From Candidatus Altimarinota bacterium (GTDB lineage: Bacteria; Patescibacteriota; Gracilibacteria; JBDHUY01): a stretch of DNA of 64,000 nt. Shown piece by piece: positions 16,101-34,287 of the stretch. Within the stretch, counting starts at the first letter, position 1. The number at the start of each line of letters is the position of its first letter. Position numbers and translations under genes: made by a program. The notes beneath the pieces were generated by a model that was not told the origin of the DNA, searched no databases, and was given only the letters and a program-made list of their open reading frames with translations. The stretch spans positions 64,001 through 128,000 of the forward strand of contig JBDHUY010000002.1 of NCBI GenBank assembly GCA_039809385.1, read 5' to 3'.

Positions 16101-19100
16101 AAGCCCCCTTTTATCTGGACAAAGACGGACAGCGCCACGATGAGAATATCAGGTGGAATATAGGCGGAGACGAAACGGAAGTCTCAGACCGTCATACACT
16201 GACGCTGGAAATTCTGAATCCCGACCCGGATAGTTTTCCGATTCTGGTCGACCCGACCGTGATCAACGACTGGAGTTTCGTCGATCAGAATGCTTCGAGC
16301 GGTTTGAATTACGATGCTACAAAAGAAGCCCAGTTTCCACAGCTGGTAGATTTCCAGGGAGCTCTATATGCGATTTGGCGCGAGACTAATTCGGCAGGAG
16401 ATTCTCATATCCGTGCGAAACGTTTTAATGGCAACAGCTGGGTATTTGTCGATGGAGGAGGGGGAAACGGGCTGAACTTTGACGTGATCCGTGATGCGCT
16501 TAGCCCTCATGCTGTTGTATTTGGCAATGCTCTTTATGTTACCTGGTGGGAGCAAACTGCCAGTGTATATCAGATCCGGGTAAAAAAATATGACGGAACT
16601 ACTTGGAGTTTTGTCGATGGAGGAGGAGCTACCGGTATTAATCAGAATACGGCACGGAATGCCTACCGTCCCTCTCTGACAGTGTACAACGGCCTTTTAT
16701 ACAATACCTGGTCAGAAGAAAATGCTTCCGCCGTTCTTCAAATCCGCGTCAAAAAATATGATGGTGTCTCTTGGACGACAGCCGATGGTGGCGGCGCTAA
16801 TGGGATCAACCAGGATACGACCAAATCTGCCGAACGCTCTAGTCTAACCGTTTATGGTACGATGCTTTATAATATCTGGATTGAGCCGAATGGTTCGGGA
16901 GTAGATCAGATCCGCGTCAAAAAATATGATGGTGTCTCTTGGACGACAGCCGATGGTGGCGGCGCCAATGGGATCAATCAAGATACCGGACGTAATGTTA
17001 CCTTCGAAAATCCGTTTATGGTTCCGTCCGGGATATATCTTTATGCGACATGGGCTGAACAAAACCCTTCAGGAATATCGCAAATCCGTGTAAAGCAGTA
17101 TGATGGTACATCCTGGATTTCCGTAGATGGAGGAGGCGTAAACGGATTGAATTATGATACGGCCAGAAATGCCGATGGTACAAACCTGCAGCATTTTAAC
17201 AATACCTTGTTTCTAGGATGGAAAGAAACGGATGCCGGGGGGATTGATCATGTTCATGTAAAGCGGTATAGCAGTGGTAGCTGGATATTCGTAGACGGAG
17301 GTGACAGTACAGGTCTCAATATCAGCTCAATCACAAATGCCCGCGAACCAAGAATGGCACTTTTTGGCAACGCGCTCTATTTGGGAGTTGAAGAAGAATC
17401 TTCCTCTTTAGTATATCAGATCCGTGTCAGAAAATATGACGGCAATACCTGGTATCTGGTCGATTCTCCCATATCTTCAGGGACCCAAAATACCGGCTGG
17501 CTCAATCTGACAACATGCAGCAATAATACTGGAACCGGTACTGCCGCCTGGGGAACCACGGCCAATGCTCTTGCCTCGGACAATGCATATAGCAGTGCAA
17601 CGTTGGGAGCAAGCGTTACGTCGAATTATCTGGTATGCACTACGCCGTCGGGAGTTTCCATTCCTTCGGGGGCCGGAATCACGGGGATTGAGGTTAATGT
17701 CGAACGATCGAGTAGTAGCGGCGCAGTCGGGGTCAATATTCTGGACAATGCGGTATATCTCGTCAAAAATAATGTAATTCTCGACAACTTAAACAAAGCG
17801 CAGGCTACAGTCTGGACAACAGGTGATACCGTGATTACTTACGGCAACAGCGCGGATCTTTGGCAAAACACTTGGAAAGTTTCTGATTTTTCAGGCGCTT
17901 TCGGAGTAGCGTTTTCCGCTAAAAATACCGGAACCGTTTCGGCCAACGGCAGAGTTGACCACATTCAGATTCGTATCCACTATACCCAAGATTTTGACAA
18001 AGGGTTAAACAAGGATGCGACCAAAGACGCGTACAATCCCGAATTTGCTACGTATAATAGCGATCTGTACGCAACCTGGTACGAGCACAATGCTTCGAGT
18101 ATCGGGCAGATCCGTCTGGCCCGCTATGATGGCATCCAGTGGACATTTGTTGACGGGAATGGCACAAACGGCTTGAATATTGACGTCAGCAAAGATGCCC
18201 AGTCGCCGCATCTGGCTGTGTATAACGGATTGCTTTATGTAACCTGGAGTGAGGCGGATAGTGTAAGCTCTATCCAACAAATACGTGTCGGAGCTTTTGA
18301 CGGGAGCGGGTGGGAGATCCTGGACGGGGGAGGTGTCACCGGGCTTAATGTTGATGTAAGTTCTCCGGCATATACACCGCGTTTTCAAGTGTACAATGAT
18401 CAAATATTTCTGTTATGGTCGGAACATTTTACCGACACCATAGACGGTCCCGTATATCATATTCGGGCCAAAGCTTCCGACGGTATCGATAACTGGTATC
18501 AGGTCGAGCCGGGAAACGGTATTAATCAGGATAATTTTTATAGCGGTGAATTTCCCCATATGGCAGTGTATAATGACACGCTGTATGCCATATGGACGGA
18601 AAGCAACTTAACGGATAGTATCAAATTGATAGCTAAACAGTATAATAATGATGAAACATGGAGTTTAACCAATGATATAGCCGGATTACAGCAGTCTGGC
18701 GGATATACCTATCCATCCAATCCCGACCTGGCCAGCTATGACGGATACCTCTATGCTATCTGGTCGCAAACGAACGCATCGCTTTCGGCGCAACATATTC
18801 GGGTGAAACGGTATGACGGAACAACCTGGTCGAGTTTTGATACCAGTAACACGTCGGTGGTATATATCGCCGATACTTCAAATAATCGTATACAACGCTG
18901 CCGTCCGAATACGACGTGTACCGTTTACGCTTCAGCCGGTGCCTCTCTGGGGCAGGTCAATGCCCCGCAGGGCGTTGCCGTCTACAATTATGATACCGTG
19001 TATATCGCCGATACCACGAATAATCGTATACAAAAGTGTACCGGATCTACGCCTACCTGTGCCCTTTATGCGGGTGCTGGAACTGCTTTGGGACAAGTAA

Positions 19101-21688
19101 ACGGGCCGGAAGCAATAGCCGTTGATAGTTCAGGAGCTGTGTATATCGCCGATCGGAGTAATAATCGGGTACAACGTTGCACGGGAGCCACCCCAACTTG
19201 TACATTATATGCGGGCAGTGGTACCGCTCTGGGACAGGTAAATCTGCCGGAAGGAATTGCTGTCGATCAAAACGGTGTGGTATACATAGCCGATACCGGA
19301 AATAACCGGGTTCAGCGCTGTACCGCCGCTGCGACGTGTACCCAATATCTGGCAGCCGGTACTTCGTTGGGACAAACCAGCTCCCCAAAAGGAATTGCGA
19401 CAGATAGTAGCGGCAATGTATATGTTTCTGATACAAATATCGCCAATCGTGTTCAGTATTGTACCGCGGCATCGACTTGTACTCTGTATGCCGCTTCCGG
19501 AACAGCGCTGGGAACAGTGAATGCCTCGCAAGGATTAATGGCTGATAATGTAGGTGGTTTGTATATCGCTGATACCGGAAATAACCGGGTTCAATATTGT
19601 ACCGCAGCATCGACTTGTACGCAGTTTGCGGGAGCCGGTACGAGTCCGGGACAGGTGAATAGTCCCCGCGATGTTGACTTTGCGTCCAGCGGGATCAACT
19701 ATGATGTCACCCGCTCCGGGGCAAAACCGCGTTTGGTGGTCTTTGGCGATAAACTGGTGGCTGCCTGGACCGAGCACAACGGCAGTTTTTTCCAGATGCG
19801 TATGAAATACTTTGACGGTACCGCTTGGTACACCGCGGATGACAATACATCCCAAAATTACAGCACCTTGAGGGGCTCAGACAGCCCGGCTCTCGTCGTC
19901 TACAAAAGCTTTGTCTATGCCGGCTGGTATGAAGGTAACGGCACCGCCAATCAGATTCGCGTCAAAAAATATGATGGCAAATCCTGGCTGTCCAGCGATG
20001 GAAACGGTACTACCGGGTTAAATTTCAATACTTCCAATACCCCGGTATCGCCCCAGTTTACCGAGTACAATAATAAACTGTATGCCACCTGGGTAGAAGA
20101 CTCGGGAGGATCGGTTTATCAGGTACGCGTTAAACGCTATGACGGTAACGGAATCTGGACCTTCGTCGATGGAGGAGGCTCGACCGGACTGAATTACAAC
20201 ACTGCCCAATCTGCCTTGGGGGCTAACGGAACAGCCTCCCAGCTGGCAGTATTTAACAATCAGCTTTTTTTGATCTGGAGCGAATTCAATACGACCGGCA
20301 GTGTCAACCAGATCCGTGTCAAAAAATACGACGGTACTTCCTGGACAAATGCCGATAGCGGCACGGTCGGTATCAATCAAAATACCTCGCGGTATGCCTA
20401 TTATCCCCATCTGGCGGTCTATGGGAACGAACTGTATGCCGCATGGTCGGAAGCCGTTACCGCCGGCCCGGCCCAGTATAATATCCGGGTCAAAAAGACC
20501 AGTAACGGTTCGACTTGGACATCGGTAGATGGTGGTGCAGCTACCGGACTCAACAAGGATACGACCAAAGAGGCATTCTATCCGCAGCTAATCGTATTCG
20601 GAGACAAATTGTATTCTATCTGGCAGGAACAAAACGGGACCGGAGTTTGGCAAAGTCGGGTACGTCGCTACGACTCGGGTTCGAGCTGGACATTTGTGGA
20701 CGGGAATGGAGCCAATGGAATCAATACTAATACGGCCTCCGACGCTATCTTCCCGCAACTTGTAGTGTATCAGAATCAAATGTATGCAGCCTGGTCCGAG
20801 TTTAACGCTTCTATCTATCAAGTTCGGGTTAGAAAATACGGTCCCACTGCCAATACGTGGACCACGGTGGATGGCGGAACCACCACGACCGGCTTGAACT
20901 TTGATACCACCAAGAACGCGAATGCTCCACGTATGGCCGTGTTTGACAATCGGCTCTTCATTACTTGGCATGAATCGGCCGGATCGTTTGATCTGGTCCG
21001 TCTCAAATATTTCAACGGTTCGACCTGGTACAACGCCGAAAACGGCTCGACCGGTATTAACTATGATACAACCAGAGATGCCCAACGTCCCAAACTCACC
21101 ATCTTTGGACGGAAACTATACGCTATTTGGCGCGAACACAACGGTACGAATTATCAGGTTAGAGTCAAAGAGCTGACTAACGAAAGTTATATCAATGTTT
21201 CTCTGCCCAGTGATACTATCAATTTCGGGACGCTGACATACAACACACTTTATAACTCGTATAGTACGACACTTCAGGTTGAAACAAATGCTGCTAACGG
21301 TTTTCAAGTCTATGTTTCCGATAACCAAAGCGGAAGCAATTCGGCACTGCAGCGCGGCATGCTCTCGAGTTATATACCCGATTACCCGTCTGCAATTGCT
21401 TCGCCGACCCAGTATAACTCCTGCGCCTCTCCGCCTTGTTACGGACTGGGAATTTGCGTAGTTTCGGCAACCGGAAAAAATACGTCCACCTGGGGCAGCG
21501 GAATTTCTGCATCCGACAGTAACAACAAATACGCTGCCGTACCGCAGGCAGACAGTCTCATCCATAGTGCTCCGGCTGGAACTATCAGCGACGAGGTCGT
21601 GATTGGATACGGGCTAAAACATGCTTTCTCTCAAACACCGGGAGTATACAGCGGTATTATCACATATACGGTCGTAGCGGTTCCGTAA
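13154..21688 (+). CDS. giant secreted protein: M4/M36-like zinc metalloprotease + 21 beta-propeller-type repeats + NHL propeller + C-terminal beta-sandwich
   Basis: Signal peptide ending AVRA. Pro-domain-like region, then DVIYHEMTH...MREGISD...DTHTNS (thermolysin-like). About 56-aa W.FVDG..GLN.D...P.L.VY...LY..W.E...QIRVK.YDG repeats and six VYIADT.NNR NHL repeats. Confidence 0.85.
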   Translation: MSEIFRFKRKSTTTLVFVLYTLSVLLAGPAAVRAQANPALPEVKPHVPAVAEPAQDSIENLNDNIDKKDLPVEKTQDGLVIKSPDTTDSLLLLPSQSERDTGASAPLPLHTKDEAIERAYMFLQQQNTFETFPKDLPIFSTQDGKDFFAFLEQAREAGIQLVTSEVIETPDRYRVRFGLRWDGIRILGEELEVILDKPTGQVTAVSGNLHRLVKDDTQNFVNPVRQAKYDLIITLLDEHATTTGTWDDAISLAEKVYYVVPDKEGEIRQGYLFEAELLYPFGVWQYLRDATTGRSIWKKNTTLLLNENENSSEQVTGSGTTIPENEVITIVPAAPEVNSETSDLPTSEKPEDSSPASAISDFSGLEVQTLLSGFAVSDKDLLNTLLLPLPFVQVFLKDKSEPLQAGADGSIAAPASRIQTVKLDSKQVQIINGIDNKIPQIDYTALSTGSGSNLPERMDSPVLSATSFALADTNAYYYAQHYLDEISRMTGITSAKQIQLFVNSRLARENGQHCTAFSLPTRYQIHFGSSEGCPGLSSDLALSPDVIYHEMTHILVEGLHPFSETTPEVDWMREGISDGVAAILNQDPLIGETVFKDPLQIDRFTSQPCTGSSDIECPDGKTTDTHTNSRLISSALWELYQKIGRSETLALLFSALQYETNTLDALVIHLLLEDDSRSRGGDNDMLNGTPHAQLILETFHDRGIGPGYLKWRQILTTQPAMALDEKWWKTESVYSERLHTILDGQHPETALVKQEENWVFSSAKDADPASAEESTDAEPTTTTEPASENLPAAEPGKTALEQNPEAIASLTRELEERQKIQTIFGDTMQEGFVYQIKNEQIHFIPQFLQNEVTAGQKTEEGNLVFADNDLDVLYQYDSTSRRLKEVLAIEKLPQQTADSTQLTVAGTESTMTGSGSLIESDQLTSQQTSGSGSILPDFVEKRDDGSRNLRFSWTVERDKSHLIKSGSEVFVRDEFGNDLLKIEAPFYLDKDGQRHDENIRWNIGGDETEVSDRHTLTLEILNPDPDSFPILVDPTVINDWSFVDQNASSGLNYDATKEAQFPQLVDFQGALYAIWRETNSAGDSHIRAKRFNGNSWVFVDGGGGNGLNFDVIRDALSPHAVVFGNALYVTWWEQTASVYQIRVKKYDGTTWSFVDGGGATGINQNTARNAYRPSLTVYNGLLYNTWSEENASAVLQIRVKKYDGVSWTTADGGGANGINQDTTKSAERSSLTVYGTMLYNIWIEPNGSGVDQIRVKKYDGVSWTTADGGGANGINQDTGRNVTFENPFMVPSGIYLYATWAEQNPSGISQIRVKQYDGTSWISVDGGGVNGLNYDTARNADGTNLQHFNNTLFLGWKETDAGGIDHVHVKRYSSGSWIFVDGGDSTGLNISSITNAREPRMALFGNALYLGVEEESSSLVYQIRVRKYDGNTWYLVDSPISSGTQNTGWLNLTTCSNNTGTGTAAWGTTANALASDNAYSSATLGASVTSNYLVCTTPSGVSIPSGAGITGIEVNVERSSSSGAVGVNILDNAVYLVKNNVILDNLNKAQATVWTTGDTVITYGNSADLWQNTWKVSDFSGAFGVAFSAKNTGTVSANGRVDHIQIRIHYTQDFDKGLNKDATKDAYNPEFATYNSDLYATWYEHNASSIGQIRLARYDGIQWTFVDGNGTNGLNIDVSKDAQSPHLAVYNGLLYVTWSEADSVSSIQQIRVGAFDGSGWEILDGGGVTGLNVDVSSPAYTPRFQVYNDQIFLLWSEHFTDTIDGPVYHIRAKASDGIDNWYQVEPGNGINQDNFYSGEFPHMAVYNDTLYAIWTESNLTDSIKLIAKQYNNDETWSLTNDIAGLQQSGGYTYPSNPDLASYDGYLYAIWSQTNASLSAQHIRVKRYDGTTWSSFDTSNTSVVYIADTSNNRIQRCRPNTTCTVYASAGASLGQVNAPQGVAVYNYDTVYIADTTNNRIQKCTGSTPTCALYAGAGTALGQVNGPEAIAVDSSGAVYIADRSNNRVQRCTGATPTCTLYAGSGTALGQVNLPEGIAVDQNGVVYIADTGNNRVQRCTAAATCTQYLAAGTSLGQTSSPKGIATDSSGNVYVSDTNIANRVQYCTAASTCTLYAASGTALGTVNASQGLMADNVGGLYIADTGNNRVQYCTAASTCTQFAGAGTSPGQVNSPRDVDFASSGINYDVTRSGAKPRLVVFGDKLVAAWTEHNGSFFQMRMKYFDGTAWYTADDNTSQNYSTLRGSDSPALVVYKSFVYAGWYEGNGTANQIRVKKYDGKSWLSSDGNGTTGLNFNTSNTPVSPQFTEYNNKLYATWVEDSGGSVYQVRVKRYDGNGIWTFVDGGGSTGLNYNTAQSALGANGTASQLAVFNNQLFLIWSEFNTTGSVNQIRVKKYDGTSWTNADSGTVGINQNTSRYAYYPHLAVYGNELYAAWSEAVTAGPAQYNIRVKKTSNGSTWTSVDGGAATGLNKDTTKEAFYPQLIVFGDKLYSIWQEQNGTGVWQSRVRRYDSGSSWTFVDGNGANGINTNTASDAIFPQLVVYQNQMYAAWSEFNASIYQVRVRKYGPTANTWTTVDGGTTTTGLNFDTTKNANAPRMAVFDNRLFITWHESAGSFDLVRLKYFNGSTWYNAENGSTGINYDTTRDAQRPKLTIFGRKLYAIWREHNGTNYQVRVKELTNESYINVSLPSDTINFGTLTYNTLYNSYSTTLQVETNAANGFQVYVSDNQSGSNSALQRGMLSSYIPDYPSAIASPTQYNSCASPPCYGLGICVVSATGKNTSTWGSGISASDSNNKYAAVPQADSLIHSAPAGTISDEVVIGYGLKHAFSQTPGVYSGIITYTVVAVP

Positions 21689-21779: not shown

Positions 21780-21809
21780 TTGACCGGAAGAGGTTTTTTA
21801 TTGTATAAT
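21780..21809 (+). promoter_or_regulatory. putative promoter of pilus operon (TTGACC-N18-TATAAT)
   Basis: Near-consensus hexamers ending 23 nt upstream of the pilB ATG. Confidence 0.45.
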
Positions 21810-21832: not shown

Positions 21833-23104
21833 ATGACTGAAAATACTAGCGCACCGACCGCTACGGCACAAGCCACTACAGGCGGATCGGCCCAAAATTC
21901 GGCTTTGGGGCGTTTGCAAGCCTCGAATATCAATATTATCGAAGTCATCGACGATATGTTTCGGACAGCTGTGGAGATGAATGCTTCCGATATTCATATC
22001 GAACCGTGGGAAACCAGTATCGTGATCCGTTTTCGGGTCGACGGGAAATTCGCCCAATATAAAAAGCTTGATGGGAGTGTCAAACAACAATTTGTCACAC
22101 GTATAAAAATACTTTCCGGTCTCAAAATCGACGAAAATCGTCTTCCTCAGGACGGCAAAGCTTCATTTCCGGCCAAAGATCAGACCGTAGATCTGCGCGT
22201 CTCAATTTTACCGGTAGTATTCGGCGAGAAGATCGTTATCCGTATTTTGAAAAAATCACAAAAAAAATTGAGTATCAAAGATCTGGGAATCATGGGGACG
22301 TCTTTAGAAAAAGTAGAGCGGGCTCTACACAAAACCTACGGTATTATTCTGGCAACCGGACCGACCGGTAGCGGAAAAAGTACGACACTTTATACCCTCC
22401 TGGGAACCTATGACGTTGCCCAGCACAACATCTCGACGCTGGAAGATCCGGTCGAATATTCGATGCAGGGAGTCAATCAAAGCCAGATACATGCTGATAT
22501 CGGGTTCGACTTCTCGGACGGACTGCGTTCGCTTGTACGTCAGGATCCGGACATCATTATGGTAGGAGAAGTTCGCGACAAAAAAACCGCCCAATTGGCG
22601 ATCGAATCGGCCCTGACTGGACATCTGGTATTTTCTACACTGCATACGAACGATGCCGCTACCACAGTACAACGTCTGGTCGATATGGGAGTTGAACCGT
22701 TTTTGATTACATCATCGATTCAATTGGTAATCGCACAGCGTTTAGTACGTAAAGTATGTCCCTTCTGTCGAGTACCCATCCGTCTGGACGGCTCGATAAA
22801 AACCCAGGTCACGCTCCAAATCGGTAATATGGTTGATAAAGATGTCGATCAGATTGCTTTTTTCAAGGCGAAAGGCTGTCCGCAGTGTAACAATCTCGGT
22901 TTTAAAGGACGTATCGGTATTTACGAGGTACTCGAAATAACCCCACCGATTCAGACGCTGGTGCTTAAGGAAGGCGTAGACAGCAATACGATCAAAGAAG
23001 AAGCACTCAAAGAAGGAATGACTACCTTGCTGCAGGATGGACTGGTAAAGGCTGCTTTGGGACTTACTACCGTCGAAGAGGTCTTCCGAGTAGTTGGAGT
23101 ATAG
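21833..23104 (+). CDS. pilB: type IV pilus/T2SS assembly ATPase PilB/GspE
   Basis: ASDIHIEP, RLPQDG, GPTGSGKST, EDPVEY, RQDPDIIMVGEVRD, TGHLVFSTLHTND, CPFC...CPQC zinc motif. Confidence 0.95.
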   Translation: MTENTSAPTATAQATTGGSAQNSALGRLQASNINIIEVIDDMFRTAVEMNASDIHIEPWETSIVIRFRVDGKFAQYKKLDGSVKQQFVTRIKILSGLKIDENRLPQDGKASFPAKDQTVDLRVSILPVVFGEKIVIRILKKSQKKLSIKDLGIMGTSLEKVERALHKTYGIILATGPTGSGKSTTLYTLLGTYDVAQHNISTLEDPVEYSMQGVNQSQIHADIGFDFSDGLRSLVRQDPDIIMVGEVRDKKTAQLAIESALTGHLVFSTLHTNDAATTVQRLVDMGVEPFLITSSIQLVIAQRLVRKVCPFCRVPIRLDGSIKTQVTLQIGNMVDKDVDQIAFFKAKGCPQCNNLGFKGRIGIYEVLEITPPIQTLVLKEGVDSNTIKEEALKEGMTTLLQDGLVKAALGLTTVEEVFRVVGV

Positions 23105-23227
23105 ATAGAATTTTCATCCATGTTTATCCGTAACGTTTGAGATTCTTCGCTTCGCTATCGCTCAGCTCAAAATGACTTGTCCCTAATACTCGATACCCCA
23201 TACTTTATACTAGATACTCATCTCACA

Positions 23228-26200
23228 ATGTCCGACCAACCAGCCAATAACGATCATCCCACGACCGAGCAGAAACTTTCCCAGCTCAACGATGCCGTAC
23301 TGGTAAGCCAGTTCAAGGATTTTATGAATCGTAAAAAGTATGAAGAATTGATCAAGAGTTATGAGACCCTGATCCTGGATCATCCGGACCATAAACCGTC
23401 CAAACAGATTTCGGGATTATACGAAAAAGCCAAAGGAAAACTGGAAGAAGCTTTGATGAAAAGCTGGTTCGAGAGTGCCAGTAAGAATATCGGAAAATAT
23501 AAAAACGACCCCGGCGCGGTGCAGTCGATCGACGAAGCAATCTACTGGGTCAAAGCTTTTTTCAAACGCAAGCAATATCGTAAAGCTATTAGAGGCGCCA
23601 AAGAGATCCTCAGTATCGACCCCGGTCACCGTGAAATAAAAGATTTGCTGGAACAGGCTCTCTATCTCTATGACAAACAGGAGCATACCTTCAAAGGCGA
23701 ATTCGATTACGAAAAACAGAAACAGATCGAAGAACAAGAACATGCTTGGAGCACACTCGAGAAACTGAAGTTCGAGATGACCAACGCGCTCGATCTGGAA
23801 AAATATAAACGGGCCGAAAAACTGGCTGACAAAGTTCTGGCGCTGGAACCTTCCGACGAAGATGCGCTCAATGTGAAACACCAGCTGGAACGGGTCAAGA
23901 ATGCAAAAAGCGGCAGCAAAAAACAGGTAGATCTCTCTGGCATGAGCAAGCTCAAAAGAAGCCTCGATATTTACCGTTTGAAACTTGAAAAAGCCAAAGC
24001 CAGCATTATCAAGACCATTTTTTCCCGATTGCGGGAAAGTGAAAGCGAAAAACTGAAACGTAAAGCACTGGAGCTGGTCAAAGAAAAGAAAGAGGATAAC
24101 GTACTGGCCCAAAAGTTGCAGAAAAATATCATTCCACAGATCGATAAATATACGCTGCCGGGATTTGACGTGTGGGGCGATACGTTGCAGTCGGAACGCA
24201 TCGGCGGCGACAGTTTCGGATTTATCCAGAGAGATGCCGAAAATATTCTCTTTTATATCGGCGATGCTTCCGGTCACGGGATCCAGGCTTCGCTGTTTTC
24301 GTCGCGAGTTAACTTGATTTTACGGGAATGTGCCCGCGAAGGTTTGGGATTGCGCGACACCGCCGTACGGCTTAATCAGCGAGTCTTTGAAGAGAAAGTC
24401 AAAGAAAAAGACAAAGATTTCATGACGATGATTCTGTTCAACTGGAATCTGAAAACCAAGACCCTCTCTTTCGTCGGAGCCGGTCACGAGTATATCATTC
24501 ATTATAAGCACAGCGAACAAAAGATCGATCTGATTCCGGCCAAAGGGATTGCCATCGGTATGATCGAAAAAGCCGAGCCGTTATTAACAGAAAAACAGAT
24601 CAAGATCGGCGATCAAGATATCATCGGTCTCTTTACCGACGGGGTCATCGAAGCCGTGATGAAGCAAAATGAAAAAGAGCTTTTCGGTATCAACCGACTC
24701 AATGACCTGCTCGTAAAAAATCTGGGGGCCAAAAACAGCAGAGAGCTCTACAGCAGCATCGTGCGCAGTGTCGGCGAACAAACCGTGCAAAGAGACGACG
24801 TTACGCTCCTGGTTTTACGTCGTGACGAGCATACCGATTTGATTTTCGAAGATGATCTGAAGGGAATCGAATCGATCGACCTCAATACGCTCAAAAATCT
24901 TTCACGCGGAGAAGTCGAAAAGTCGATTCAGGAAATTTCGCGCGAAAACAAAGTCAAACACCTGCTGTTAGAACTGAATAACCTGCTGCAGCGCGGAGAA
25001 TTCCAGATGATCGTTAACCGGTGTACCGAAGCGATCGTGAAAGACGAAGTTTATAACAAAGAGATTAACAATTTTTTACGCAAAGCCAAAAAATATCAGG
25101 TACAACAACGCGAAAAAGAGCGTCGCGATCAGATCGAGGCGATTTATCGTCTGGCCCGCGACGAATTCAAAGCCGGTGAGTCCATGAAAGCGAAAATGAG
25201 CCTGCTAAAAATCATGAAGCTCGACGAAAAAAATCTGAAGATCAAAACATTATTCAAACGGGTCGAAAAGGCGGTAATAAAATACGGTCCCCGGCATTTG
25301 CATAAGAAAAAGCAGAATGTCTGGCTCGATAACCTCGTTCGAAAAATAAATCTGGCGCTCAGTCCGGCCAACAAAAAAGACAATGTCGATTTCATCGTAC
25401 GTCTTTCAAATCTGGTCAATTCCGGAATCAAAGTGAAAGAATCCTTATTGATCCTTATCAAACAGGCCAAAAAAGATAGTCTGAAGATCATGTATGCCAA
25501 AATGATCGAAAATCTGGAGAAAGGGTTCCTGCTTTCCTTTTCTATGGCGCTGTATCCCCGGGTATTCACTTCACTGCAAACCAATCTGGTGCGTGCCGGC
25601 GAGGAAAGCGGTAACTTGGGACCGATCCTGGATGACCTTAGCCATCAATTGATCGAAGAACGCGATCTGAAAAGAAAAATCAAGGGGGCGCTTATTTATC
25701 CCGGCTTCATTATCTCGTTCAGTATTGCGCTGGTCGTGGGGATGATGCTCGGAGTAGTTCCCCAGCTTGCTCAAGCCTACAATGATGCCAAACTTACGTT
25801 ACCTGTTCCGACCCAGGTGATCATTGCGATAAGCAATTTTATTCGAGATTTTTGGTATGTTCTCGTCATCCTGGGCGTGGGCGGAGTTATCGGCATGATC
25901 TCTTTCGGCCGAACCTTACCCGGGAAACTGTTTTTCGATCAGGTTAAGATTAAAATACCGATTTTTAAAGATTTGACCCGTAAATCCAACGTGTTTCTGT
26001 TCGGCAACAGTCTGTCGATGCTGGTAGACAGCGGTATTCTGCTCCTGGATGCCATGAGCATTACGTCGGATGTGGTGCAGAATATTTACTATAAACGAGA
26101 AATCGTACGGGTCAGAAACGATGTAGTCAACGGAAAGGCCTTGTCTTCCGCACTTGGAATCGATGCTTTGAGCGACAAGACCAAAAAAGAGAACGAGTAT

Positions 26201-26434
26201 TTTCCGCTGGAAGTCCCGCAGATGGTACAAGTAGGCGAGAGCACCGGTCAGATTACAAAAATGCTCCGTCAAGTAGCCGAAAACTATCAGAGAGAATTGA
26301 AGGATTTTGCCAAAAACTTTTCGACCATTATCGAGCCTGTGCTAATTGTCTTTATCGGTGTCATGGTCGGAGTATTGCTTGTTTCGATCATGTTACCCTT
26401 CTTTGAATTCGGCAAAGTCATCAAGAATCAATAA
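23228..26434 (+). CDS. pilC: fusion protein: TPR-like repeats + PP2C/SpoIIE phosphatase + type IV pilus platform PilC/GspF
   Basis: PP2C motifs IGGDSF, IGDASGHG, GAGHE, FTDGVIEA, RDDVT. T2SSF motifs NLVNSGI, AGEESGNL, KIKGALIYP, MVQVGESTG, IIEPVLIVFIG. One uninterrupted frame. Confidence 0.9.
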   Translation: MSDQPANNDHPTTEQKLSQLNDAVLVSQFKDFMNRKKYEELIKSYETLILDHPDHKPSKQISGLYEKAKGKLEEALMKSWFESASKNIGKYKNDPGAVQSIDEAIYWVKAFFKRKQYRKAIRGAKEILSIDPGHREIKDLLEQALYLYDKQEHTFKGEFDYEKQKQIEEQEHAWSTLEKLKFEMTNALDLEKYKRAEKLADKVLALEPSDEDALNVKHQLERVKNAKSGSKKQVDLSGMSKLKRSLDIYRLKLEKAKASIIKTIFSRLRESESEKLKRKALELVKEKKEDNVLAQKLQKNIIPQIDKYTLPGFDVWGDTLQSERIGGDSFGFIQRDAENILFYIGDASGHGIQASLFSSRVNLILRECAREGLGLRDTAVRLNQRVFEEKVKEKDKDFMTMILFNWNLKTKTLSFVGAGHEYIIHYKHSEQKIDLIPAKGIAIGMIEKAEPLLTEKQIKIGDQDIIGLFTDGVIEAVMKQNEKELFGINRLNDLLVKNLGAKNSRELYSSIVRSVGEQTVQRDDVTLLVLRRDEHTDLIFEDDLKGIESIDLNTLKNLSRGEVEKSIQEISRENKVKHLLLELNNLLQRGEFQMIVNRCTEAIVKDEVYNKEINNFLRKAKKYQVQQREKERRDQIEAIYRLARDEFKAGESMKAKMSLLKIMKLDEKNLKIKTLFKRVEKAVIKYGPRHLHKKKQNVWLDNLVRKINLALSPANKKDNVDFIVRLSNLVNSGIKVKESLLILIKQAKKDSLKIMYAKMIENLEKGFLLSFSMALYPRVFTSLQTNLVRAGEESGNLGPILDDLSHQLIEERDLKRKIKGALIYPGFIISFSIALVVGMMLGVVPQLAQAYNDAKLTLPVPTQVIIAISNFIRDFWYVLVILGVGGVIGMISFGRTLPGKLFFDQVKIKIPIFKDLTRKSNVFLFGNSLSMLVDSGILLLDAMSITSDVVQNIYYKREIVRVRNDVVNGKALSSALGIDALSDKTKKENEYFPLEVPQMVQVGESTGQITKMLRQVAENYQRELKDFAKNFSTIIEPVLIVFIGVMVGVLLVSIMLPFFEFGKVIKNQ

Positions 26435-26487
26435 CCCACGAAAAATTTTTACGTAAATATCCGATCCACGTACCTAAATATTTTTTT

Positions 26488-27696
26488 ATGAAGATCAACC
26501 TGGACGCTTTGAAGGAACAATTTCAACCGACACCTCCTGCCGGCGGTAATCCTGCCTCCGTTACGTCAGGATCTCAGTCGCAGGGAAGCGGAAACGATCC
26601 TGTCGCGAATTCATCCGCAGGGGCAAAAGCTACTATTGGCAGTGTTCCGGCTGGCAACGACAAACCTGAGATAGCGCCTTCCGCGGCTTCGTCAAGTACA
26701 CCCCTACCTTCACCTGTTTCTAACAATACCCCTGCGCTTAAGGAAGAAGAAGACACCCCGCCCAAGGTAGTGCTAAAAAGTACTGCATCCGAAAGTAACT
26801 CTGCTACTGAAAAAAATAGCAGCCCCGAGGCGACGCCGATCAAGATGATTTCTCTCAATAGCAAAAACACACCAGCCAAAGCTACCGGGGTAAAGCTTTT
26901 GTCGGTCGAACAAATGAAACAACAGAAAAAAGAACAGGAAGAACGGAAAAAAAATGTCCAAGTCGCGCCGGTCGACAAAAAAACGACCCTGGAAGTTGTT
27001 ATGGAGGAAGAACCGCTTCTGTTCGGGAACCTGAGCTCCACATCTCATCAGAAATGGCACAAAGAGAAGGAAAAATTCCGTAACTATCAAAGCAAGAAAA
27101 GAAAGCAAGCTGTCAAAATGGTAACGCCCGCCATAGGACTCTTTGCTTTGGCGTTAATTCTTTGGCCCGTTGGCAATAATTTTATCGCTTCTCTGTCGGG
27201 TACCACTTCTCAACAAAACACAAACGGAGTACCCATCAATGGAAATTCTTATCAAGTCACTCAAACCAACGATAACGCGCTACATGCCTCGGCCAATCAG
27301 AATAGCACCAATACGAATGAAAATCACTCGCTCAACAAAAATGCCAACACGCTTGCGCAGACCAATAGAAATAATAATCCGGTGACACCACAAAAATTCG
27401 TGACGAGTGTACAGAATGTTGCTCCTCAAATTTCGACTCAGAATGTGGAGGATCTGGAAAAGGCTTTTTCCAATCAAAGGACATTGACCGTTTTTGAAGC
27501 GGTGAAAGCCAGTATGGAGACTTTCAACATTCCCAGTCTGATTCCGCGGAATAAATTCAGTCCAAAGGATCGTTATGTTGTAAAATTTTCTCTCAAAAAC
27601 GGTATCGTCGCTCAGGAAGAAGATCTGTATAAAATTCTGGACGATGATACGCTTCACGATATCGAAGCCACGATGGTGCGGTATGTGACGAAATAA
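26488..27696 (+). CDS. hypothetical single-pass membrane protein with low-complexity regions
   Basis: ORF inside the pilus operon. One TM helix (AIGLFALALILWPV) and S/P/N-rich linkers. Confidence 0.75.
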   Translation: MKINLDALKEQFQPTPPAGGNPASVTSGSQSQGSGNDPVANSSAGAKATIGSVPAGNDKPEIAPSAASSSTPLPSPVSNNTPALKEEEDTPPKVVLKSTASESNSATEKNSSPEATPIKMISLNSKNTPAKATGVKLLSVEQMKQQKKEQEERKKNVQVAPVDKKTTLEVVMEEEPLLFGNLSSTSHQKWHKEKEKFRNYQSKKRKQAVKMVTPAIGLFALALILWPVGNNFIASLSGTTSQQNTNGVPINGNSYQVTQTNDNALHASANQNSTNTNENHSLNKNANTLAQTNRNNNPVTPQKFVTSVQNVAPQISTQNVEDLEKAFSNQRTLTVFEAVKASMETFNIPSLIPRNKFSPKDRYVVKFSLKNGIVAQEEDLYKILDDDTLHDIEATMVRYVTK

Positions 27697-27862: not shown

Positions 27863-29221
27863 ATGCCCGATCCTATTGTTCTGACCCCAGTGGTTCCAAA
27901 AGAAGAAATAGCGTTTTCCGAAGCAAATTCTGTTGTCGCCGAGGCATCGTCAAACGAATCGCCCGAAGAATCGTTGGTAGAAGAATCCGTAACGGACGAT
28001 GCGCCACAAAACGACTCTCAGGCAGAGAATTCGTCGCCGCAAACTCAAGAAAATACTTCTAACGATTCCTCGTCCGTGCAAGAACAGGAACCGGCAGACA
28101 AGACAGCAGTGATCGAAACTCACATGGAGAATATCGTCACAAGCGAGGGTACGAAAGATTACGGAAAAATTTTGCGACGATTGCTGCAGGTGATGATCGA
28201 CAACTCGGTTTCGGATATGTTCGTGACCGTTGGAGTCCATCCGATTATCCGCGTCTATGGTGATCTGGTAGCATTGAGCGAAGGCTTGGATATTCTAACA
28301 CCCGACGATACTGAGGGCATCGTCCACGAGCTGTTGGCTACCGAGGAACGACGCGAAAAGTTTAAAATCCTGAAAGAACTGGACTTCTCGTTTGCCGTAG
28401 GAGACGAACGTTTCCGTGTGAACGTATTCCGTCAAAAAGGCTATGCTTCGGCCGCGGTTCGCTATTTGCCGGCCAAGATGTATTCGATCGATTCGCTCGG
28501 TCTTCCCGAGATTTTTCGCGAAGTAACTACGCGCAGCAGCGGAGTCATTCTCGTCGCTGGACCGACCGGTTCGGGTAAATCGACGACACTTTCGGCTATG
28601 ATCGACGAGATTAACAGCAATTATAAAAAACACATTATTACCATCGAAGACCCGATCGAATATGTTCACAAGCATAAGAAATGTATCATCGAACAACGCG
28701 AAGTGGGGGAGGATACCGAGAGTTTTTCCAAAGCTCTGCGCTCTGCGTTACGCGAAAATCCGGACGTCGTGCTGGTAGGGGAAATGCGTGATCTGGAAAG
28801 TATTCGCAACACCCTTACCCTGGCCGAAACCGGACATCTGGTCTTTGCCACTATCCATTCGCGGTCGTCGGCACAGTGCATTACCAAAATCGTCGACAGT
28901 TTTCCAGCGGAACAGCAGAACCAAGTGCGTCTGCAACTGGCGGAAGCCGTTGTAGCTATCTTTAACCAGCGTCTGCTCAGAAATGTGGGCGGGAACGGCT
29001 ATGTTCTGGTAACCGAGGTAATGATCGCCAATAACGCCATCCGCAATCTGATCCGCGAAAATAAAATATTCCAGGTAAACAGCAGCATCCAGATGGGACA
29101 AGCTGACGGAATGCATTTATTGGAAGACGATATTGTTCGCGTCATCCGGGAAGGACGGGTTACCAAAGAAGAAGGCGTGAAACACGCGAATGATCCTACG
29201 GCCATCCTACGCGCAGTTTAA
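27863..29221 (+). CDS. pilT: type IV pilus retraction ATPase PilT
   Basis: RFRVNVFRQ, GPTGSGKST, EDPIEY, LRENPDVVLVGEMRD, ETGHLVFATIH, AIRNLIRE motif; acidic N-terminal extension. Confidence 0.95.
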   Translation: MPDPIVLTPVVPKEEIAFSEANSVVAEASSNESPEESLVEESVTDDAPQNDSQAENSSPQTQENTSNDSSSVQEQEPADKTAVIETHMENIVTSEGTKDYGKILRRLLQVMIDNSVSDMFVTVGVHPIIRVYGDLVALSEGLDILTPDDTEGIVHELLATEERREKFKILKELDFSFAVGDERFRVNVFRQKGYASAAVRYLPAKMYSIDSLGLPEIFREVTTRSSGVILVAGPTGSGKSTTLSAMIDEINSNYKKHIITIEDPIEYVHKHKKCIIEQREVGEDTESFSKALRSALRENPDVVLVGEMRDLESIRNTLTLAETGHLVFATIHSRSSAQCITKIVDSFPAEQQNQVRLQLAEAVVAIFNQRLLRNVGGNGYVLVTEVMIANNAIRNLIRENKIFQVNSSIQMGQADGMHLLEDDIVRVIREGRVTKEEGVKHANDPTAILRAV

Positions 29222-30547: not shown

Positions 30548-31144
30548 ATGGAAAATGCCATTAAAAAGGCTCACGCCGGTTTTACTCTGGTTGAGCTGAT
30601 CGTCGTAATTGCGATCGTTGCCATTCTCTCGACCATAGGGTTCGTATCGTATAACGGATATATCGCCAGTTCCCGCGACACAGTCCGCAAATCCGACCTC
30701 GGTGAAGCGACCGGTGCCATCACCGCATTTATAGCCAGTCAACAGAGAGCTCCTCGTTGTAAGGGCGGAGCCGCAGTATGTTACTTCGCAAAAGATACGG
30801 GAATAGATGCCGCTAAAAAACTGGGGACAGATGCCAATATGCCCGGAATCGAAGATGCCGACTGGGATAAGCTCAATATCAAGAAAACTCCGGAAGATCC
30901 CAAGAAAGCCTACTATGTCTTTGCTAACGGAGCCGGTGACAAATTTGCCGTCTTCGCCACTCTGGAAGAAAACAATAAAGCTTCTTCTTATGTGACCGGT
31001 TCCGACGATTTCTCGACCAGTCTGGGTGGTATTACTGTGAACGGTTTCCCGGTAGATGCAAACGGAGCTATCCAAACCGGAGGCGCCCCCGTAGCTATAG
31101 CCAAGAATGGCGATACCGCAGCAGTTCCATATAAGTTCCCATAG
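30548..31144 (+). CDS. type IV pilin (prepilin-type N-terminal cleavage/methylation)
   Basis: KKAHAG|FTLVELIVVIAIVAILSTIGF...SRDTVRKSDL. Confidence 0.95.
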   Translation: MENAIKKAHAGFTLVELIVVIAIVAILSTIGFVSYNGYIASSRDTVRKSDLGEATGAITAFIASQQRAPRCKGGAAVCYFAKDTGIDAAKKLGTDANMPGIEDADWDKLNIKKTPEDPKKAYYVFANGAGDKFAVFATLEENNKASSYVTGSDDFSTSLGGITVNGFPVDANGAIQTGGAPVAIAKNGDTAAVPYKFP

Positions 31145-31776: not shown

Positions 31777-32379
31777 TTATAAAACCAATTTGATAATTTC
31801 TTTCTGAGTATATTGGATACTTCTGAGGTAATCAAACTTTTCCGGTCTGCTTACAAAAGTCTTTTCAATAAAATCCATTGTATCACTATTCGTATTAAAC
31901 ATACTTTCGATTATTCTCACATTCACCGTGGGATAATAAGAAAAAATTTCAAGAATGGTGTGTCTAGATTCGCTATGAGTTCTATAAAAATGCGTTTGAT
32001 TGAACTTCCTTTCTCTGCCCAGAAAAACGAGAAAAGCTTTTCGAAGATCTCGCGGAAGTATAAAGTGAATATCCAATTGACGATTACAAGCTAATACATG
32101 ATCTATTTTGATACATGCTCCTTTAAATGTTGGTAAAGTTCCATCAAAGAATATGCCATAAGCATGTATTTTGACATATTGAGAAAGGTATTCGGTTTTT
32201 CCTGATGCACTTCCGCCAGCCAAAACTAGAACTGGCGCAGGAATTATTTCAACTGCAGTTTTAAACCACTTATCGGCAAGTTTTGCGGATTCAGTATGAA
32301 ACTTTTCTGCCTTGTCAGGAGTATAGCTTGGGAAAAAAGTTTTAATTTCATCCGGAGAAATGATAAGAGGGGAAGCCAT
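31777..32379 (-). CDS. zeta-toxin-like P-loop kinase
   Basis: LAGGSASGKT Walker A, IISPDEIK, FFDGTL and RER elements typical of zeta/AAA_33 kinases. Confidence 0.65.
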   Translation of the reverse strand: MASPLIISPDEIKTFFPSYTPDKAEKFHTESAKLADKWFKTAVEIIPAPVLVLAGGSASGKTEYLSQYVKIHAYGIFFDGTLPTFKGACIKIDHVLACNRQLDIHFILPRDLRKAFLVFLGRERKFNQTHFYRTHSESRHTILEIFSYYPTVNVRIIESMFNTNSDTMDFIEKTFVSRPEKFDYLRSIQYTQKEIIKLVL

Positions 32380-32402
32380 AAATTATTATTGAGGGAACAT
32401 TT

Positions 32403-33311
32403 CTACTTATGGTACTTATCGTGTACTTCTTTCAGTTTCTGATTCGTCACATGCGTATAAATCTGAGTGGTCGTAATGCTGGCATGTCCCAGCATTTCCT
32501 GTACCGAGCGGATGTCGGCCCCGGCAAACAAGAGCTGGGTGGCAAAGGTATGCCGGATCGTGTGCGGGGTGACTTTTTTTACTAATCCTGCCATGCGTGC
32601 CGCAGAACGCACGATTGTTTCAACACTGACGGTACTCAGGCGGGTACCTTTGTCTGAAACCGCATCATTTTTTCTTTTCTTGAAATTGATAAATATGGCC
32701 GGAGATAGGTCTTTTCGCTCGTTCATATATTTTTCCAGCCAGGTCCTGGCGCGCTCGGACAAAAACACGATCCGGGTCTTACGACCTTTCCCGCGCACCA
32801 TAAATTCGCCGGTTTTCAGGTTCACCTGATCCCGATTGAGCGACACGATCTCGCTCACGCGCAATCCGGTACTATAGAGCATTTCGATCAAAGCGCGGTT
32901 GCGTAACCCGGTCAGCTGGTCAGTATCGATACTCTCCAGCATTGTTTCCAGCTCTTCGCGTGTAAGAAAAGACACCTCTCGATCTTCCTGTTTCATGAGA
33001 TCGATCTTTTCCGGAGCCAGTACCTGGTAGTCCTGCCTGGTCAGATATTTGAAAAAAGCCCGTAAGGCGATCAGATGATAGTTTTGGGTTTTTCGACTGA
33101 GCGTGCGTCCGTTCTTGTCTTCATGGCGATTGAGGTGGAGGCGGAATTTGGCTACAGTATTCAAATCGATCGTTTCGATAGCGGTTTGAGTCCCGGCAAA
33201 CTGTTCGAACCGCCGGAGATAGTGACGGTAATTGATCACCGTTTTTAGAGACTGATTTTTAGCGATTTCGGCATGTTCCAGAAATGCCAGGATTGCGTCG
33301 CGTAATATCAT
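32403..33311 (-). CDS. tyrosine recombinase XerC/XerD family
   Basis: RNRALIEMLYSTGLRVSE, GKGRKTR, TPHTIRHTFAT, VQEMLGHASITTTQIYTHV. Start reassigned to MILRDA at 33311. Confidence 0.95.
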   Translation of the reverse strand: MILRDAILAFLEHAEIAKNQSLKTVINYRHYLRRFEQFAGTQTAIETIDLNTVAKFRLHLNRHEDKNGRTLSRKTQNYHLIALRAFFKYLTRQDYQVLAPEKIDLMKQEDREVSFLTREELETMLESIDTDQLTGLRNRALIEMLYSTGLRVSEIVSLNRDQVNLKTGEFMVRGKGRKTRIVFLSERARTWLEKYMNERKDLSPAIFINFKKRKNDAVSDKGTRLSTVSVETIVRSAARMAGLVKKVTPHTIRHTFATQLLFAGADIRSVQEMLGHASITTTQIYTHVTNQKLKEVHDKYHK

Positions 33312-33405
33312 AAGACGGACAAAAAGATGAAAAGTATGTTCTCTTATGGCATAAACCATACTATATTTCAGACTTTCTCTCAATCGTTCGTTCTTGCACG
33401 TACTG

Positions 33406-34287
33406 TCATATACGATTATCCCACGAAAACGAGCAGTGAGTTTGATCATCGCAAACCGCTTCTATCGTGCCGAATTGATCGGTCCGGTAGCTTTGGATAT
33501 CGTGTTCCTCGAATCGGTCCAGAATTTCGGTATTGGGATGTTTAAATTTGTTATTTTTGCCGACAGAGATCGTCGCAAACTTTGGGTTCGCGTTATATAA
33601 CAACAAGTTACTGCTGGAAGTTTTGCTGCCGTGATGTCCGGCTTTCAGTATCAGACTTTGAATATCGTACCCCTGATAGAGGAGTGCCTGCTCGAGCGGT
33701 TCTTCCATGTCCCCGGTAAATAAGACGTGGGTATCTCCATACAAAAGCCGAAAAACGACCGACGTATCGTTGATCATATCGTCCCGCACTTTCCGATTCT
33801 CCAAACTGCGTACCGGCGCCAGAATATCCAAATACAGACCCGGCTCGATTTCTATATCCCGCCCGGCCCGCGCGATCAATATGCGGCTTTTAGCGGCTAA
33901 CTGTTTGAATCGTGCATAGGCTTTAGTATCGCTTTCGACCCCGCTATACAGTACCATGGGGATCTCGTACCGTTCCATAACAGATATCAGCCCTTCCACG
34001 TGATCGGCATGCGGATGCGTGAGTACGACCATATCGATTCGAGAGCGAAAGAAACCCAGTTTTTCGGGAAGTACTTGTAAAATCCCGTCCCCCGGTCCTC
34101 CGTCTACCAGAATGTATTTTCCCCGGGGTGTCTGAATGAGCGTGGCGTCGCCCTGTCCGATATTGAGAAAGTAGAGATGCAACCGTCCGTCGGGCAGTGT
34201 AAACTCGAATACGAGAAATAGTATGAGCAGCAGGGAAGCCAGCACGTACGGGATCAACCAACGACGGGGGAGAAATGAGAGTTTCAT
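33406..34287 (-). CDS. ComEC/Rec2-like metallo-beta-lactamase domain protein
   Basis: IGQGDA, LVDGGP, THPHADHVEG, NDTSVV, FTGDME, KAGHHGSKTSS, HPN, RTDQFG. Confidence 0.92.
   Translation of the reverse strand: MKLSFLPRRWLIPYVLASLLLILFLVFEFTLPDGRLHLYFLNIGQGDATLIQTPRGKYILVDGGPGDGILQVLPEKLGFFRSRIDMVVLTHPHADHVEGLISVMERYEIPMVLYSGVESDTKAYARFKQLAAKSRILIARAGRDIEIEPGLYLDILAPVRSLENRKVRDDMINDTSVVFRLLYGDTHVLFTGDMEEPLEQALLYQGYDIQSLILKAGHHGSKTSSSNLLLYNANPKFATISVGKNNKFKHPNTEILDRFEEHDIQSYRTDQFGTIEAVCDDQTHCSFSWDNRI

Follow-up and report, generated by a model that had tools for sequence, protein, structure and literature searches.

We analyzed a stretch of 64,000 nucleotides (nt), hereafter the window, from a Candidatus Altimarinota bacterium of the class Gracilibacteria (positions 64,001 to 128,000 of contig JBDHUY010000002.1, assembly GCA_039809385.1), whose genome comprises 1.87 Mb in 26 contigs and is 95% complete. 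The window carries a type IV pilus locus in which one gene encodes both an RsbU/SpoIIE-type PP2C phosphatase module and PilC, the platform protein of the pilus machine. The open frame extends without a stop from 23177 to 26434 on the forward strand, and the ATG at 23228 opens a protein of 1068 amino acids (aa) whose start methionine matches the start of its homologues. From N- to C-terminus, this protein is composed of a TPR-like helical domain, a coiled-coil linker, the PP2C domain, a second helical domain, and a complete PilC (Table 1). A first-pass annotation, made from the DNA letters without database searches, had described a single open reading frame of about this length with all PP2C Asp motifs followed by a complete two-domain T2SSF/PilC. 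Both parts of that description hold: GGD (residues 326-328), GDASGHG (345-351), TDG (470-472), and DD (523-524) are all present, two T2SSF stretches are matched, and the alignment to the GspF model covers its positions 60-400 of 401.

Table 1. Features of the PP2C-PilC locus, numbered from the first nucleotide of the window.
Feature	Position	Strand	Length or description
Short PilB/GspE-type assembly ATPase without N-terminal domains	21833..23104	+	423 aa; Pfam T2SSE, E 1.5e-124
AT-rich element	23186..23218	+	33 nt; ends 10 nt before the fused-gene start codon
Whole fused gene, PP2C phosphatase module and PilC	23228..26434	+	1068 aa
TPR-like helical repeat domain, N-terminal	23279..23908	+	residues 18-227; all-helical in the AlphaFold2 model
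Basic helical (coiled-coil-like) linker into the catalytic domain	23939..24157	+	residues 238-310; from model and composition
PP2C (SpoIIE/RsbU-type) catalytic domain	24158..24832	+	residues 311-535; Pfam SpoIIE
Second helical domain	24941..25297	+	residues 572-690; AlphaFold2 confidence (pLDDT) about 80
PilC/GspF platform part	25316..26434	+	residues 697-1068; two T2SSF repeats, three hydrophobic segments
402-aa protein	26488..27696	+	one hydrophobic segment at about 207-236; low-complexity N-terminal half
PilT retraction ATPase	27863..29221	+	452 aa; TIGR01420 pilT_fam 426.8 bits against 319.1, residues 104-445
Pilin-like protein with N-terminal methylation motif	30548..31144	+	198 aa; Pfam N_methyl, E 4.5e-8; hydrophobic at 5-39

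The catalytic domain is a clear member of the Pfam SpoIIE family (PF07228 at residues 338-532, E 1.9e-34, 119.8 bits against a cut-off of 25). Residues 311-535 take up the alpha-beta-beta-alpha fold of PP2C enzymes in the AlphaFold2 model, with a predicted local distance difference test (pLDDT) score of about 80-89. Foldseek searches with the model retrieved the PP2C domain of SiaA (PDB: 6k4e; template modeling (TM) score 0.81, root-mean-square deviation 3.0) and RsbX (3w40, TM 0.80), and the PP2C domains of RssB, Rv1364c, and SpoIIE match at E <=1e-9. By sequence, the domain aligns with structures of Bacillus subtilis SpoIIE (5mqh, 3t91) and Pseudomonas aeruginosa RssB, and its metal-binding Asp positions fall on the SpoIIE motifs in 5mqh and 3t91. 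We take D328, D346, D471, D523, and D524 to be the metal ligands of the PP2C catalytic center; the domain is a putative Mn/Mg-dependent phospho-Ser/Thr phosphatase.

The regions around the catalytic domain are helical. The first-pass annotation's TPR-like repeats are partly borne out by the model, which has all-helical repeats at residues 18-227 and again at 572-690; the family assignment is less firm, as TPR_14 scores 21.1 bits, below the Pfam cut-off of 23.5, and the best Atlas match of the N-terminal domain, to TPR clusters at 0.79, serves only as a lead. Confidence across residues 18-227 is mostly 70-89 and drops below 50 at 84-98. The basic helices at about 228-310 (K+R fraction 0.29 in the linker at 238-310) are of low confidence in the monomer model, and the stretch N-terminal to the catalytic domain is strongly conserved among eight close homologues. 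A flexible, low-confidence stretch at 543-570 separates the catalytic domain from the second helical domain.

Two stretches of the platform part match T2SSF (PF00482; E 1.9e-46, 157.6 bits against a cut-off of 25.2), and residues 708-1064 correspond to positions about 57-400 of about 401 in the NCBIfam GspF/PilC models. Its scores stay below the NCBIfam equivalog cut-offs (256.8 against 424 for GspF; 225.9 and 189.3 against 700 for the PilC models), which marks it as a divergent member of the superfamily and no equivalog of any named PilC, as judged by these profiles. This part is modeled with a pLDDT of about 80-88, and the highest-ranking Foldseek match of the full model is the PilC chain of 3jc8, a model of the Myxococcus pilus machine. 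The full-length model has a mean pLDDT of 75.5 and a predicted TM score of 0.39; because of the latter, we leave the packing between domains uninterpreted. Hydrophobic segments occur solely at about 818-851, 864-897, and 1029-1065, the positions canonical for the membrane segments of PilC, where the model has long helices; there are none before residue 800. PilC proteins have an N-in topology. With the hydrophobic segments confined to the PilC part, the first ~800 residues, including the phosphatase, would therefore be cytoplasmic.

The two halves could have been joined by a mis-assembly or by a missed stop or frameshift between two genes, and separate PP2C and PilC genes do occur in a related family (see below). 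We therefore compared the window with contigs from public activated-sludge and wastewater runs. A single contig of run X2 covers 24825-26017 with 0 differences, a stretch that begins where the PP2C domain ends, includes the linker, and reaches into PilC; in this contig the junction, for which the first-pass annotation had proposed a check by reads, shows no stop or frameshift. Three contigs of run X1 jointly cover 24122-26500, with overlaps of just 23 and 26 bases. Since these runs may include the source sample of the window, independent assemblies are the stronger argument for a real fusion: there are 17 fused homologues of 1003-1121 aa from different assemblies, and the linker is conserved in frame. 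On the strength of the bridging contigs and of these homologues, the fusion is no assembly artefact, and we consider a joining error extremely improbable.

The fused homologues came from several searches. A word-based search of 5.8 billion clusters returned eight fused proteins of 1003-1068 aa with 40-100% identity. We also searched 1.84 billion representatives exhaustively with HMMER and, from the best 150 listed, scanned with Pfam the 24 proteins of at least 499 aa outside three close relatives. Among these 24 were eight more full-length fused proteins (1043-1121 aa), a 700-aa fragment with SpoIIE and T2SSF, and a 1190-aa protein with TPR and T2SSF and without SpoIIE; the remaining 14 had T2SSF only. 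A search with a 16-sequence profile, which scored about 8000 word-sharing candidates and missed known members, added only P0194 and P0195; P0194 is a further fused protein and brings the full-length fused sequences to 17. The only homologue record bearing a name is a "hypothetical protein" of a Candidatus Peregrinibacteria bacterium, and the single match in the contig database is titled "uncultured Candidatus Peribacteria bacterium." A sample of 41 genomes from the whole class includes three with fused frames (the genome of the window, G001 from the same family, and G013) and one, G022, with a split form. Two class-wide searches covered 401 genomes. One, with the linker alone (residues 536-720), hit six of them and missed the known carriers G013 and G022, too insensitive for a census; the other, with SpoIIE, matched 203, and as the fused genes score below the best 150 of its 348 matches, they are uncountable from it.

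Across 16 homologues with 25-77% identity to the window protein, D328, D346, H350, D471, G472, D523, and D524 are invariant. That the catalytic residues persist down to 25% identity points to an enzyme that works and not to a relic. It also bears on the idea that the PP2C fold dephosphorylates nothing and acts as an adaptor at the pilus base, for example in place of the N-terminal domains of PilB or of PilM. RssB acts as an adaptor, and its P. aeruginosa structures are among the best fold matches, so PP2C-like adaptors are possible; moreover, a Pfam scan of the pilus cassette found no PilM gene. A pure scaffold is nonetheless difficult to reconcile with invariant metal-binding Asp residues and adjacent Gly and His in all 16 sequences, and with the retention of the catalytic residues in the split-form protein as well, and we regard it as very unlikely.

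The PP2C and PilC parts also share a history. In a tree of the PilC part (42 rows), all 17 fused proteins fall into one clade with a support of 93; the clade also contains the split-form PilC, two PilCs of ~406-410 aa, and one of 720 aa, and the stand-alone PilC from the genome of the window is distant from it. A tree of the PP2C domain (32 rows) recovers the same three subclades as the PilC tree and places all other SpoIIE domains, including that of a HAMP-SpoIIE protein from the same genome, beyond a branch with a support of 94. Both are quick trees, with support from the Shimodaira-Hasegawa-like approximate likelihood ratio test (SH-aLRT) only. Their agreement implies that the two parts traveled together, and by this reading the association of PP2C with PilC appears to be old and selected.

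The split form occurs in a family that reads TGA as a sense codon. In G022, the same region has separate genes in the order short PilB (412 aa), a 664-aa PP2C protein, and a 406-aa PilC that starts four bases past the TAA stop of the PP2C gene, followed by PilT. The 664-aa protein aligns to residues 295-651 of the window protein and ends 18 residues later; this assigns the second helical domain to the phosphatase module and puts the point of fusion at about residue 669/670, near nt 25235. Read under code 25, the split-form protein keeps the catalytic residues. P0195, at 45% identity, is a second split-form PP2C protein with the same end point. The P0195 record (733 aa) has W where its G022 orthologue (L032:9955-11949 (-), code 25) has conserved Gly, including in the catalytic GDATGHG motif, and seems to be a translation of TGA as Trp instead of Gly. 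We examined 41 genomes from 29 genera of the G022 family: all 41 have the PP2C orthologue and 40 the PilC orthologue, and in 38 of them the coordinates put the PP2C gene directly upstream of, and on the same strand as, pilC. The remaining three comprise two with the genes on different contigs and one with no PilC above threshold. The arrangement forms a clade with fused and split adjacent-gene forms and is no one-off, and the physical coupling of PP2C to PilC asserted in the first-pass annotation is upheld by the intact catalytic motifs, the complete PilC, and this conservation.

In the window, the PilB encoded directly upstream of the fused gene aligns to positions 176-561 of the 564-position TIGR02538 model, with the first ~175 model positions missing. 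Similarly short PilBs (396-423 aa) lie directly upstream of the PP2C gene in four loci from four genomes (the window, L001, L031, and L032), all with the gene order PilB, PP2C, PilC; PilT follows downstream in the window, L001, and L032 but not in L031. The first-pass annotation had placed the fusion between pilB and pilT, which is accurate for pilB and needs amending on the other side, where the 402-aa gene precedes pilT. Searches of Pfam, NCBIfam, and PDB sequences gave no match for the 402-aa protein, and it is unlike the product of a 331-aa gene in the same position of L001. PilT carries an N-terminal extension of ~103 residues that is acidic and rich in Ser/Thr (27863-28171 (+)). L001 and L032 conserve neither the tail nor the 402-aa gene.

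Upstream of the fused gene, the 33-nt element has one further copy in the genome (C14:52454-52486, 3 mismatches), which ends 8 nt before the start of rplQ (L17), just after rpoA. The same stretch is found in other contigs of runs X1 and X2, and it may serve both genes as a leader or promoter. Promoter- and terminator-like sites are no commoner in the window than in shuffled sequence; the scan gave one 11-of-12 site at 21780-21809, before pilB. Immediately upstream of the cassette is an open frame of 2844 aa with NHL repeats (13154-21688 (+)), which may encode a surface protein. Just past the cassette, 31777-33449 (-) holds a gene for a tyrosine recombinase of the phage integrase family (348 aa) and, beside it, a short open frame with a weak zeta-toxin-like match.

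The cassette is not the only source of pilus components in the genome, which encodes three PilB-like and two PilT-like ATPases and, on another contig, a second, ordinary PilC (381 aa) beside PilN, PilO, and a pilin. In G001 and G022, too, the PP2C-linked PilC gene is accompanied by ordinary ones, so the PP2C-linked platform is an additional paralogue that comes with ATPases of its own. Many PilCs of the class have other long N-terminal extensions without PP2C, with totals of about 500-1190 aa, and are encoded beside long PilB genes (L033:3083-6031 (-), L034:8450-10780 (+), P0047, P0048-P0051, P0062, P0063, and P0102); one extended PilC without PP2C has strong TPR matches. N-terminal elaboration of PilC looks like a wider theme in the class.

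A phosphatase placed on PilC, between PilB and PilT, might regulate the motor locally. It would then act on PilB, PilT, the 402-aa protein, or a STAS protein that binds the ATPases, as a switch between extension and retraction, one of the two roles that the first-pass annotation had suggested, the other being a mechanosensory output; the N-terminal TPR/coiled-coil module would receive the signal, with the pilus as output. RsbU-type enzymes usually receive their input through an N-terminal domain and helical linker, and such an input module is present in the model. The PilB of the cassette is without N-terminal regulatory domains, so another regulator may be needed, and the Ser/Thr-rich acidic tail of PilT and the long low-complexity N-terminal half of the 402-aa protein are conceivable targets. 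These two features are, however, the ones absent from L001 and L032, and the 95% complete genome has no Pkinase match, that is, no Hanks-type Ser/Thr kinase was found that could phosphorylate motor parts. To our knowledge, the known substrates of the Pfam SpoIIE family are STAS domains. We therefore think local control of the motor unlikely.

Genes for a STAS-based partner switch are present. The first-pass annotation had proposed a search for RsbW, RsbV/STAS, or Ser/Thr kinase partners, and the genome yielded the first two kinds and no Hanks-type kinase. An RsbW-like kinase fused to STAS (269 aa), the one clear RsbW-like kinase of the genome, is followed by a STAS-only gene (143 aa; C3:41681-42939, L016:3681-4939). 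This pair is conserved in many relatives, often beside a SpoIIE gene of ~400 aa, and ~9 kb downstream of it on C3 are the genes for PilN, PilO, the ordinary PilC, and pilin. A third STAS protein (STAS-X, 403 aa; C10:52823-54034, L018:6823-8034) consists of a STAS domain, 50% identical to the STAS-only protein, and ~290 residues of Pro/Val/Ala-rich low complexity. Ser77 lies in a conserved INSK motif and is shared without exception by 13 STAS sequences of the class; we take it to correspond to the phospho-Ser of SpoIIAA. With no Pkinase match, the RsbW-like kinase is the sole evident source of phospho-Ser substrates.

A STAS gene adjoins a SpoIIE gene in at least five relatives (G011, G028, G014, G019, and G033), and in G011, G028, and G014 the RsbW-STAS frame is also beside it. 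All four known carriers of the PP2C-PilC pair (G000, G001, G013, and G022) have STAS. A STAS query matched 29 of the 41 class genomes, and 11 of the 12 without a match also have no SpoIIE-type match. G001, which is 86% complete, has RsbW and STAS genes, and its sole SpoIIE match is the PilC-fused PP2C. The genome of the window has exactly two SpoIIE-family matches, the fusion and the 527-aa HAMP-SpoIIE; the latter scores 210 bits with a profile of the fused PP2C domains and is the nearest outside the fused and split set, and SpoIIE proteins of other lineages score <=140. A complex prediction for PP2C (residues 280-540) and the STAS protein, run without controls, scored 0.10 against a mark of 0.32 and speaks neither for nor against binding.

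We propose, as a reading with roughly even prospects, that an active PP2C anchored at the pilus base dephosphorylates phospho-STAS proteins and thereby couples the pilus machine to a partner switch; activity, substrate, and the signal's direction and output are inferred. The PilC part would belong to a dedicated type IV pilus machine, with the short PilB encoded upstream and PilT and a pilin downstream, and since the PP2C module is joined to this PilC, the phosphatase would sit at the cytoplasmic face of the pilus base. Its most likely substrate would be the phospho-Ser of small STAS-domain proteins, which the RsbW-like kinase would phosphorylate to form the partner switch. The tether would make STAS dephosphorylation happen at, or depend on, the pilus machine, and pilus activity and phospho-switch would thereby be coupled. 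In the direction that we prefer, the state of the machine would gate the phosphatase, sensed via PilC or via a partner of the TPR/coiled-coil module, and the freed STAS protein would pass the signal onward.

Several observations weigh against this proposal. The genes for the STAS proteins and the kinase lie on C3 and C10 rather than on C2, the contig of the fusion, and are thus unlinked to the pilus locus; the HAMP-SpoIIE could be the sole STAS phosphatase of the genome. Among six Sigma70_r2 matches, one primary and five short and ECF-like (extracytoplasmic function), no SigB/SigF-type sigma factor is evident. RNA run X11 has two 151-nt contigs within the fused gene, which are no proof of transcription. 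Finally, PilC is C-terminal to the enzyme and may be a mere anchor rather than a sensor, with the pilus as the site where the enzyme acts, because the phosphatase has its own N-terminal regulatory-type module; this weakens the direction from machine to enzyme. Alternatively, PilC may gate the enzyme via the conserved helical domain. In the most direct version of that route, PilC itself would be the sensor, and its cycle under PilB/PilT engagement or pilin passage would be relayed through the helical domain to PP2C. This version is doubtful; if it is true, extension, retraction, or load on host contact would lead directly to STAS dephosphorylation, a type IV pilus motor would for the first time have an enzyme-coupled readout, and the protein would be the switch that starts an attachment program in host-dependent members of the candidate phyla radiation.

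The fused protein has counterparts in several characterized systems. It shares with RsbU, RsbP, and SpoIIE of Bacillus subtilis the Pfam SpoIIE domain with metal-binding Asp positions that align with 5mqh/3t91, a regulatory-type N-terminal module and helical linker before the catalytic domain, and STAS/RsbW-type genes in the genome. Unlike them, it continues past the catalytic domain with a helical domain and a polytopic PilC, and its gene is outside any STAS/kinase operon, with no SigB/SigF-type sigma factor seen in the genome. SiaA of the P. aeruginosa SiaABCD system provides the best-fitting solved PP2C domain (6k4e) and is reported to be a membrane-held PP2C whose partner switch has an output other than a sigma factor. 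SiaA, however, is held by its own membrane segments and not by a pilus platform protein, and its output is a diguanylate cyclase of the same operon; the one GAF-GGDEF gene in the genome of the window is unlinked to the fusion.

The PppA-PpkA threonine phosphorylation pathway of P. aeruginosa type VI secretion is a precedent for post-translational control of a cell-envelope nanomachine by a PP2C, and works with both a Hanks kinase and an FHA protein. The Foldseek matches of the model include PppA (6jkv, rank 24), but it is not fused to its machine and works opposite a Hanks kinase, of a type for which the genome of the window has no Pkinase match. Compared with canonical PilC/GspF, the platform part has the same two T2SSF repeats and three hydrophobic segments and is encoded beside PilB, with PilT further downstream; it differs in its cytoplasmic extension of ~670 residues with an enzyme, in its sub-equivalog scores, and in being an extra paralogue.

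The nearest links between partner switching and pili come from cyanobacteria. In passages on the Hmp system of Nostoc punctiforme (PMC6495340), hormogonium motility driven by pili requires HmpU, HmpW, and HmpV, and the output is the STAS protein, which acts on an undefined effector; a passage on Synechocystis (PMC7076178) lists the RsbU-like slr2031 among pilus regulation genes. The Hmp system thus has a PP2C, a kinase, and a STAS protein genetically tied to type IV pilus motility, as here, but in these passages the Hmp proteins and slr2031 are separate soluble proteins, and no fusion with or adjacency to PilC is reported. Literature searches on PilC/T2SSF with SpoIIE, PP2C, or RsbU gave no description of a PP2C-PilC fusion among the papers listed, and the main texts of PMC6744442, PMC4736985, PMC8080830, and PMC11452946, taken without supplements, make no mention of a phosphatase. 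The first-pass annotation knew of no characterized example, and none turned up in these searches. The protein joins two well-known families, and the combination is real, conserved, and new to each of them.

Two questions about type IV pilus machines are open: by what route the cell learns of their activity, and how they switch between extension and retraction. The known links between pili and signaling are indirect and run through chemosensory-like systems, cyclic di-GMP (c-di-GMP), or the separate partner switches of cyanobacteria. Here, the platform protein has a signaling enzyme covalently attached or, across a related family, encoded directly beside it, and the gene pair persists in 29 or more genera of that family as well as in several fused lineages. 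The molecular link that this suggests is testable, as its elements are defined by the sequences: one soluble fragment, one kinase candidate, and three candidate STAS substrates. Discussion passages of PMC6744442 regard type IV pili as central to the way in which members of the candidate phyla radiation associate with other organisms, and the phosphatase module at the pilus base may therefore bear on host recognition in this large uncultured group.

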